From: Myxococcaceae bacterium
Lineage (GTDB): Bacteria; Myxococcota; Myxococcia; Myxococcales; Myxococcaceae
NCBI GenBank assembly: GCA_016926755.1
Contig: JAFGNZ010000231.1
Location: forward strand, 1,008 to 65,007
Direction of reading: 5' to 3'
Length of the DNA: 64,000 nt
A program made the position numbers and the translations under genes. How positions within the stretch are numbered: position 1 is the stretch's first letter; every line of letters begins with the position of its first letter. Positions 26,332 through 26,844 of this stretch are shown here, in pieces. Below the pieces are notes generated by a model. It was not told where the DNA came from. It worked only from the letters and a program-made list of their open reading frames with translations, and made no database searches.

Positions 26332-26844
26332 TCAGTTGATCTGGACCTTGCCGCCGCGGATGCGCTGCCGCTCGTCGGCGTGGGTCACGATGTTGATGCC
26401 CTTGATCTCCACCTCGCCATCCCAGCGCAGCGTGATGCTCGCCTTGCCGCACTGGAGCACCACCTCGTCGCGCCCCTCGATGAGGACGCGCTTGCCGTCC
26501 ACCCGGGCCTCGCGCGGCGCGGCCGGGAGCGGACCGGCGAGGACCGCGTCGAGGTTCGGGGTGGTGCTGGAGGCCTCCTGGCGGAGCCCCACCACCATCG
26601 GCCGGGAGGGCTCCCCTTCCTGGAAGAGGAGCGCCACCGCCTGCCGCGCAGACACGGCCCGCGCGAGCGCCTCCGCCTCCACCGGCACGAAGAGCTCCGC
26701 GGGCAGCGGCCCCCGGAGGTTGCCCGGGAAGTCCACCAGCAGCCGGCCCTCCGCGTCCCTGCCGTGGAGCCACCCCACGCGGGGCTCGCGGATCCGCTCC
26801 TCGGCCTGCACGGTGGGCTCCAGCCCCTTCTCCTCTGGCTTCAT
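26332..26844 (-). CDS. small protein whose C-terminus copies the VgrG C-terminal beta-helix tip
   Basis: Track ORF 26332..27258 trimmed to the ATG at 26844 (MKPEEKGLEP...), 170 aa. Its C-terminus GKASITLRWDGEVEIKGINIVTHADERQRIRGGKVQIN aligns by eye with the VgrG(+) C-terminus GSASLTFKKSGDIVIKGAKIEVTASGDVIIKGGKIGDN. It lies between the PAAR-like gene and the AHH toxin. Confidence 0.6.
   Translation of the reverse strand: MKPEEKGLEPTVQAEERIREPRVGWLHGRDAEGRLLVDFPGNLRGPLPAELFVPVEAEALARAVSARQAVALLFQEGEPSRPMVVGLRQEASSTTPNLDAVLAGPLPAAPREARVDGKRVLIEGRDEVVLQCGKASITLRWDGEVEIKGINIVTHADERQRIRGGKVQIN

Follow-up and report, generated by a model that had tools for sequence, protein, structure and literature searches.

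Within a 64,000-nucleotide stretch of a Myxococcaceae bacterium genome (contig JAFGNZ010000231.1, positions 1,008 to 65,007 of the forward strand; hereafter, the window), a small gene close to type VI secretion system (T6SS) genes encodes a protein of the Pfam family DUF6484. We favor, with moderate confidence, a reading in which this protein is a TvpC-like surrogate spike tip, on which a PIPY cap would assemble before being handed over to VgrG. The protein is homologous to VgrG in its OB-fold and in its C-terminal tip. Judged from sequence, it fits the class II TvpC proteins in its DUF6484 match, its fold, and the PIPY, DUF2169, PRK06147-like and VgrG genes of its surroundings. The gene, its two domains and the VgrG that carries the matching tip are as follows.

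26332..26844, minus strand: DUF6484 / TvpC-like mini-VgrG gene, 170 amino acids (aa) plus stop (open reading frame translation, Pfam DUF6484).
26584..26778, minus strand: OB-fold domain (residues 23-87), homologous to the VgrG/gp5 OB-fold (Pfam, AlphaFold2, BLASTP).
26335..26502, minus strand: C-terminal β-prism tip (residues 115-170; BLASTP, hhalign, profile matches, repeat register, AlphaFold2).
33231..35579, plus strand: canonical tail-less VgrG, 782 aa (Pfam Phage_GPD, Phage_base_V, Gp5_trimer_C), with its C-terminal tip at about 35445-35576.

An initial annotation of this DNA had aligned, by eye, the last 40 or so residues of the 170-aa protein with the end of the canonical VgrG. That similarity is real, and it is longer than first proposed, extending over 53-60 residues. 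In BLASTP, residues 111-170 aligned without gaps to residues 723-782 of the 782-aa VgrG, with 17 of 60 positions identical (28%, E=1e-6), and the alignment reached the last residue of both proteins. A profile comparison, named in the annotation as a check on the similarity, was significant: a 20-sequence family profile matched the 782-aa VgrG in hhalign with a probability of 93% (E=3.1e-7, 53 columns). The family profile also matched solved VgrG structures (9mlp, E=9.6e-7; 7q5p, E=5.6e-5; 4mtk, E=0.02), and these matches were located at the OB-fold end and the β-prism end. The last 56 residues of the protein form seven 8-residue repeats (VDGKRVLI/EGRDEVVL/QCGKASIT/LRWDGEVE/IKGINIVT/HADERQRI/RGGKVQIN), in register with the last repeats of VgrG. 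The terminal Asn is kept in 79 of 80 family members and in all 23 tail-less VgrGs from related loci. When the 62-residue tip alone was used as a profile, it matched 4105 cluster representatives at E≤1e-3, and 2665 of them at E≤1e-10. This C-terminal tip module is present in no fewer than 2665 clusters made at 50% identity. The best 150 of these matches were all short proteins, with the match flush with the C-terminus.

The description of the protein as a copy of the VgrG tip was half right. It is a free-standing homolog of the tip, but it is not a tip alone, as its N-terminal half is a VgrG-like OB-fold. Residues 68-86 match the OB-fold of the 782-aa VgrG at 468-486 (BLASTP E=0.002), and the Pfam DUF6484 model itself matches the OB-fold ends of both VgrGs in the window (E=3e-5). 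The AlphaFold2 monomer has a confidently predicted OB-fold, with a predicted local distance difference test score (pLDDT) of 86-94 over residues 21-90, followed by β-strands at residues 112-148 (pLDDT 60-78). The lower scores of the β-strand part are expected, because the chain would fold only as an intertwined trimer. About 20 disordered residues precede the OB-fold. A Foldseek search of the PDB with this model gave 27 matches at E≤0.001, every one of them the central spike of a contractile injection system. They include Pvc8, Afp8, the AlgoCIS and Anabaena contractile injection system spikes, VgrG1, VgrS, the R2 pyocin spike and the phage P1 spike, with E-values from 8e-7 to 8e-4.

From the homology of OB-fold and tip and from the fold matches it follows that the DUF6484 protein corresponds to a VgrG that has kept its OB-fold and the last turns of the prism but not the gp27-like hub. 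Compared with VgrG and T4 gp5, it has a homologous OB-fold, homologous terminal prism repeats and the same final residue, whereas the Phage_GPD/gp27-like hub and most of the prism are missing (170 versus 782 aa). Phage_GPD was found in both window VgrGs (E about 1e-90) and not in the 170-aa protein in the Pfam scan. Without this hub, the protein cannot sit on the Hcp tube as a structural spike.

Profile searches place the protein in the DUF6484 family. Pfam DUF6484 (PF20093) matches residues 23-87 with 60.2 bits against a cut-off of 27.6 (E=3.2e-16), and all 20 aligned homologs match it as well. An NCBIfam scan of the protein gave no model, its sole match being a spurious β-lactamase (E=0.02). 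The DUF3540 hidden Markov model (HMM) matched neither the window protein at E≤0.1 nor the 20 homologs at E≤0.01. Phage_base_V was likewise absent from the window protein at E≤0.1 and from 19 of 20 family members at E≤0.01; the remaining relative matched it at E=0.008. The best match in PHROGs had only E=0.27, to a family of unknown function. A phage or tailocin spike was considered and dropped: PHROGs gave no meaningful match, the neighbors are T6SS genes, and the resemblance is at the level of the fold only. The closest such protein is the P2 gpV/R2 pyocin spike (PDB 4s37), which has the same size and domain order, OB-fold then triple β-helix (Foldseek E about 1.5e-4). The window protein differs in lacking an apex domain after the last repeat, ending instead at a blunt tip, and in its setting among T6SS effector genes rather than tail genes.

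The gene exists at the coordinates given in the initial annotation, and it lies on the minus strand. Its ATG is at 26844 and its stop at 26332-26334, a Shine-Dalgarno-like sequence, GAGGGGAG, lies about 8 nt 5′ of the ATG, and the GC content of third codon positions is 0.96 in a window of 69% GC. The plus-strand reading of the same interval was rejected, as it gives no sensible protein. Against an 84%-identical ortholog from a Hyalangium metagenome-assembled genome, the ratio of nonsynonymous to synonymous substitution rates (dN/dS) was 0.28 overall and 0.22 in the C-terminal 60 codons, a pattern that indicates purifying selection on the whole gene and on the tip.

There are two VgrGs in the window, and they belong to the two classes seen in related loci, one tail-less (about 750-810 aa) and one extended at the C-terminus. 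The second window VgrG is of the extended kind.

29775..33302, minus strand: second VgrG with a C-terminal extension of about 400-470 aa; Pfam VgrG domains reach only to about residue 610, and the start is approximate.

The window tip aligns with tail-less VgrGs flush with their stop (alignment scores 62-100), whereas its alignments with extended VgrGs are weak and internal (scores 32-43). Within the window itself the tip score is 77 for the canonical VgrG, where the match ends at the stop, versus 41 for the extended VgrG, whose tip-like segment is followed by a 402-aa tail. Because that segment is internal, the extended VgrG is probably not the partner of the DUF6484 module, and the canonical 782-aa VgrG is the presumed final acceptor of the PIPY cap. 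No Pfam family matches the extension of the second VgrG (29775-33302), which might carry an effector domain and make the protein an "evolved" VgrG. As the open frame continues far upstream, the position of the start codon of this VgrG is uncertain.

The neighbors of the DUF6484 gene are those that the initial annotation had named, namely a toxin-less DUF4150 gene, which lies upstream, and an AHH nuclease gene, which lies downstream. An Imm11 gene comes after the nuclease gene. Together with the other genes that bear on our reading, they are as follows.

26874..27359, minus strand: toxin-less PAAR-like DUF4150 (PIPY) protein, 161 aa, immediately upstream of DUF6484 (Pfam Tox-PAAR-like E=7.7e-42).
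25410..26300, minus strand: AHH-family nuclease toxin, 296 aa, immediately downstream of DUF6484 (Pfam AHH E=1e-5; WHEAHH motif).
24791..25390, minus strand: Imm11 immunity protein (Pfam Imm11 E=1.1e-9).
23406..24773, minus strand: TIGR02270-family HEAT/ARM-repeat protein (NCBIfam TIGR02270 E=3.9e-71, above cut-off; Pfam HEAT_2).
22228..23325, minus strand: PRK06147-like thiolase-fold protein, 365 aa, TvpD-like (NCBIfam PRK06147).
35615..36691, minus strand: DUF2169 protein (TvpA-type PIPY chaperone), convergent with the canonical vgrG (Pfam DUF2169 E=2.2e-100).

The 161-aa DUF4150 protein contains the motif PIPIPYP and has no residues beyond the domain match. Imm11 probably starts at an internal ATG near 25390 (MSGSNARRF...) and not at the listed TTG at 25489, which would overlap the AHH gene by 80 bases. 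The PRK06147 match of the 365-aa protein covers its full length at E=1e-46, below the equivalog cut-off. Its profile matches FabF structures, its homologs carry the source name 3-oxoacyl-ACP synthase, and a Pfam scan of the protein gave no match; the 397-aa open reading frame following the HEAT gene was recognized only from NCBIfam PRK06147 and the source names. The minus-strand T6SS cluster of the window is complete, with TssJ, K, L, M, A, Hcp, TssE, Fha and TagF. By sequence, the window holds the full class II Tvp set: DUF4150/PIPY, DUF6484, PRK06147-like, DUF2169 and the 782-aa VgrG, one of two VgrGs. A pentapeptide-repeat TvpB partner is absent from the window.

Several other genes lie among these. 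Between the extended VgrG and the PIPY gene are four small open reading frames on the minus strand (27450-29770; 187, 160, 179 and 123 aa) without a Pfam match even at E≤10. The 187-aa and 123-aa frames are paralogs (37% identity, E=3e-18); the 160-aa and 179-aa frames show no relationship to one another. The small frames possibly serve the extended VgrG as immunity genes, and they lie outside the conserved module, as they were found again in only 1-2 related loci. An Imm49-family protein (21454-22227, minus strand) follows the PRK06147-like gene, with no obvious cognate toxin adjoining it; Imm49 homologs occur in about 39 related loci, often after the PRK06147-like gene. The DUF2169 gene is preceded on its own strand (35615-39406, minus) by an HTTM/vitamin-K-carboxylase-like gene (36760-38199) and an imelysin gene (38192-39406), which are unusual neighbors for a T6SS chaperone.

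The statement in the initial annotation that no role had been characterized for such a protein is out of date. The family has its own Pfam entry, and Sachar et al. (2025, PMC11883445) listed DUF6484 among the conserved genes of T6SS "synteny type A". In that study, DUF4150 "PIPY" domains formed a spike with VgrG only if their cognate DUF2169 chaperone was present, and transposon insertions in every gene of a Proteus cluster abolished killing. Already in 2020, gene context had led to the proposal that PRK06147 is an adaptor (PMC7714669). Monlezun, Earl and Coulthurst (bioRxiv, February 2026, 10.64898/2026.02.23.707444) found that Serratia TvpC, a DUF3540 protein predicted to be a trimeric OB-fold and β-prism without gp27, forms a pre-complex with TvpAB, TvpB and Paar1. 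The TvpC-TvpAB-TvpB-Paar1 and VgrG1-TvpAB-TvpB-Paar1 complexes were mutually exclusive, and TvpC was required for the VgrG1 complex. The same preprint defines DUF6484 as class II TvpC, a short and trimeric mimic of VgrG that is proposed to assemble into a pre-complex with the DUF4150/PIPY cap, DUF2169 (TvpA) and PRK06147 (TvpD) and then to give way to VgrG; its type example is P. aeruginosa PA0095-PA0101. The suggestion in the annotation that the protein holds its partners before loading therefore agrees with the published DUF6484/TvpC model in the case of the PAAR-like protein, while for the AHH toxin it finds no support.

Class II TvpC proteins (P. aeruginosa PA0096, V. parahaemolyticus VP1395) belong to the same Pfam family as the window protein and, like it, have an OB-fold and a very short β-prism with no gp27-like domain. 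As in the window, they are encoded with DUF4150/PIPY, DUF2169, PRK06147, an ARM/HEAT protein and a VgrG of 700-800 aa that is one of at least two. The arrangement differs. The window order is PIPY, DUF6484, toxin, immunity, TIGR02270 and PRK06147-like, whereas class II model clusters have vgrG, DUF6484, DUF2169, PRK06147 and PIPY-toxin. In the window, PIPY carries no toxin and the nuclease has a gene of its own, whereas in the Pseudomonas and Rhizobium class II models the toxin is fused to DUF4150. The Myxococcota cassette is also multi-copy and often lacks VgrG or DUF2169 within 10 kb, unlike the class II model clusters. Class III TvpC proteins (DUF3540; S. marcescens TvpC and Burkholderia TagC) share the proposed job of a gp27-less VgrG mimic in a PAAR-like/DUF2169 pre-complex that VgrG later replaces. 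They differ in family, the window protein having no DUF3540 match. The DUF3540 protein of Burkholderia T6SS-5, TagC, is required for sheath assembly.

We infer a sequence of steps for the window on the pattern of these models. The DUF6484 protein would trimerize into a short stub of about 30 Å, a length estimated from seven repeats at about 4.8 Å each; it is near the 28 Å reported for PA0096 and contrasts with the 81 Å reported for the β-prism of Serratia TvpC (10.64898/2026.02.23.707444). The stub would show the same blunt end as a tail-less VgrG. The adjacent toxin-less DUF4150/PIPY cap would fold and dock on this blunt end, together with DUF2169 (TvpA) and the PRK06147-like protein (TvpD), and the TIGR02270 HEAT protein could possibly also be part of the cytoplasmic pre-complex. 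Cap and chaperones would then pass to the 782-aa tail-less VgrG, whose tip has the same sequence pattern. VgrG would displace the surrogate, and the stub would stay in the cell, unsecreted. The AHH nuclease would be the cargo of the resulting spike.

The cargo may be coupled through a part of the toxin itself. The AHH toxins encoded after DUF6484 (window 25410-26300 and loci L001-L013) have in common a Cys/His-rich N-terminal region, KH..CLNRH..CS.RWQ..YNWP.Y, before the nuclease domain, and this region is assigned to no family. This conserved region may couple the free toxin to the spike, to the chaperones or to a cassette protein.

The DUF6484 protein has many relatives. A set of 5.8 billion proteins contained 516 homologs, which form a discrete family whose length is constant; among the best 120, those with a name come from Myxococcota. 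A genome scan found 78 DUF6484 loci, essentially all in Myxococcota and often several per genome, with five in Vitiosangium sp. and four in Corallococcus terminator BB12-2. We counted neighbors over 81 DUF6484 genes, the window included. DUF4150 is immediately upstream in 36 of the 81 and within 10 kb in 59. VgrG is immediately upstream in 10 and within 10 kb in 26, and DUF2169 in 6 and 43, respectively. On the other side, the TIGR02270 HEAT protein is immediately downstream in 32 of the 81 (63 within 10 kb) and an AHH-type toxin in 17. The PRK06147-like protein is within 10 kb in 53. The PIPY proteins of related loci are mostly toxin-less and about 160 aa long; a minority carry extensions of 200-260 aa, and these sit in the order DUF2169, PRK06147, PIPY-toxin. 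In five Myxococcus-type loci (L009, L012, L023, L024 and L042), no usual partner of DUF6484 lies within 10 kb, and the gene after it encodes an ankyrin-repeat-like protein (…GRTPLMAAARAGRADLV…).

The linkage extends beyond Myxococcota. By tblastn, the DUF6484 family is present on 99 megaplasmids of Ralstonia, Rhizobium, Burkholderia and others. In Rhizobium phaseoli the order is VgrG, DUF6484 and a hypothetical gene, then, convergently, DUF2169, 3-oxoacyl-ACP synthase, DUF4150 and a hypothetical gene, which is a textbook class II cluster. The Rhizobium phaseoli DUF6484 protein (141 aa) shares 39% identity with the window protein along its entire length (E=6e-26) and matches the end of its own VgrG (E=1e-8). 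DUF6484 synteny is thus kept from Myxococcota to Alphaproteobacteria.

Several observations weigh against the surrogate-tip reading. The window PIPY protein has no toxin domain, unlike Tse7, which leaves the link to the AHH cargo unexplained. The DUF2169 gene lies 9 kb from the DUF6484 gene, beyond both VgrG genes. Among the 53 loci with full 10-kb flanks, 18 lack both VgrG and DUF2169 within 10 kb, and 12 have PIPY, HEAT and PRK06147-like genes only. The AlphaFold2 model is of a monomer, and its pLDDT falls below 60 in the C-terminal 20 residues. DUF6484 tips are no closer to the VgrG of their own locus than to those of other loci (23 pairs, mean 80.0 versus 80.1, permutation p=0.60), in a test with little power because VgrG tips are nearly invariant in the clade. 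Lastly, the published DUF6484 pre-complex is an AlphaFold model in a preprint, and the experiments there were done on the DUF3540-type Serratia TvpC (10.64898/2026.02.23.707444).

We consider four other explanations, all less likely than a surrogate tip. The DUF6484 trimer could be mainly a loading dock for the N-terminal region of the AHH toxin, bringing the toxin to the PIPY-capped spike instead of serving solely as a template for PIPY. The next gene after DUF6484 is the toxin gene in the window and in the loci closest to it (17 of 81), the toxins in this position share the conserved N-terminal region, and a cargo whose PIPY protein is toxin-less needs some other attachment. Yet the gene after DUF6484 is more often the TIGR02270 gene than a toxin gene (32 of 81), clusters of the Rhizobium and Pseudomonas type have the toxin fused to DUF4150 and away from DUF6484, and what the family conserves is the VgrG-like tip, which is the docking face for PAAR/PIPY. 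We therefore regard a role as cargo adaptor as unlikely. Still less probable is a secreted spike extension or mini-spike, in which the trimer would sit on top of the VgrG tip, or take its place, and be exported along with the PIPY cap. An extension of the spike had been suggested in the initial annotation, and the size of about 170 aa and the domain order do equal those of the R2 pyocin spike (4s37, about 170 aa). The suggestion is unsupported: there is no gp27-like hub to join Hcp, no known interface seats an OB-fold trimer on a β-prism tip, phage and tailocin families gave no matches and no tail genes are nearby. Serratia TvpC and VgrG1, moreover, never co-purify, in line with their mutually exclusive complexes (10.64898/2026.02.23.707444).

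A decoy or negative regulator would use the same surrogate tip to keep the PIPY cap from VgrG, limiting firing or choosing the effector cassette. Its tip pattern is the same as that of VgrG, and since a myxobacterial genome holds several cassettes that each have a DUF6484, these could compete for one VgrG. The genetics point the other way, as deletion of Serratia TvpC abolishes the VgrG1 pathway with no enhancement (10.64898/2026.02.23.707444) and in Proteus no gene of the cluster could be hit by a transposon without loss of killing (PMC11883445). We give a decoy slightly less weight than a secreted extension. The last explanation, that the gene is a non-functional remnant of a truncated vgrG, would account for homology to only the C-terminal third of VgrG with two vgrG genes near. 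Conservation effectively refutes it. The 516 homologs are of constant length, at least 2665 clusters have this C-terminus, always flush with the protein end, and synteny is conserved from Myxococcota to Alphaproteobacteria. The gene itself has its own ATG and Shine-Dalgarno-like sequence, with the high third-position GC and low dN/dS given above.

The DUF6484 family and its proposed role have already been described, and our analysis reveals no new kind of system. What is new is modest. On sequence evidence with statistical support, the protein carries a copy of the spike tip flush with its stop codon, and the copy is specifically from the tail-less VgrGs. The myxobacterial cassette layout is also new, again in a modest way, with its toxin-less PIPY cap, free cargo toxin, DUF2169 in trans and several copies per genome. 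The tip copy explains a widespread small T6SS gene at the sequence level, as one that reproduces the docking end of one VgrG class residue for residue, and such a copy is needed by the recently proposed "pre-complex" model, in which the spike is assembled in two steps. As a natural variant of this model, the myxobacterial layout could be used to ask how cargo is coupled to PIPY-capped spikes and how many cassettes are served by each VgrG.

It is tempting to speculate further, although we hold what follows only tentatively and think it more doubtful than the surrogate tip itself. In Myxococcota, the surrogate tip may be part of portable multi-copy cassettes, each pre-assembling its cap and cargo on a private TvpC and competing for one shared VgrG/DUF2169 pair. 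Such a cassette would consist of a toxin-less PIPY, DUF6484, a free toxin with its immunity gene, the TIGR02270 HEAT protein and the PRK06147-like protein, many having no VgrG and DUF2169 of their own. If this is true, DUF6484 would decide which effector is loaded and might contact the cargo toxin, a role beyond the PAAR-folding template proposed so far.

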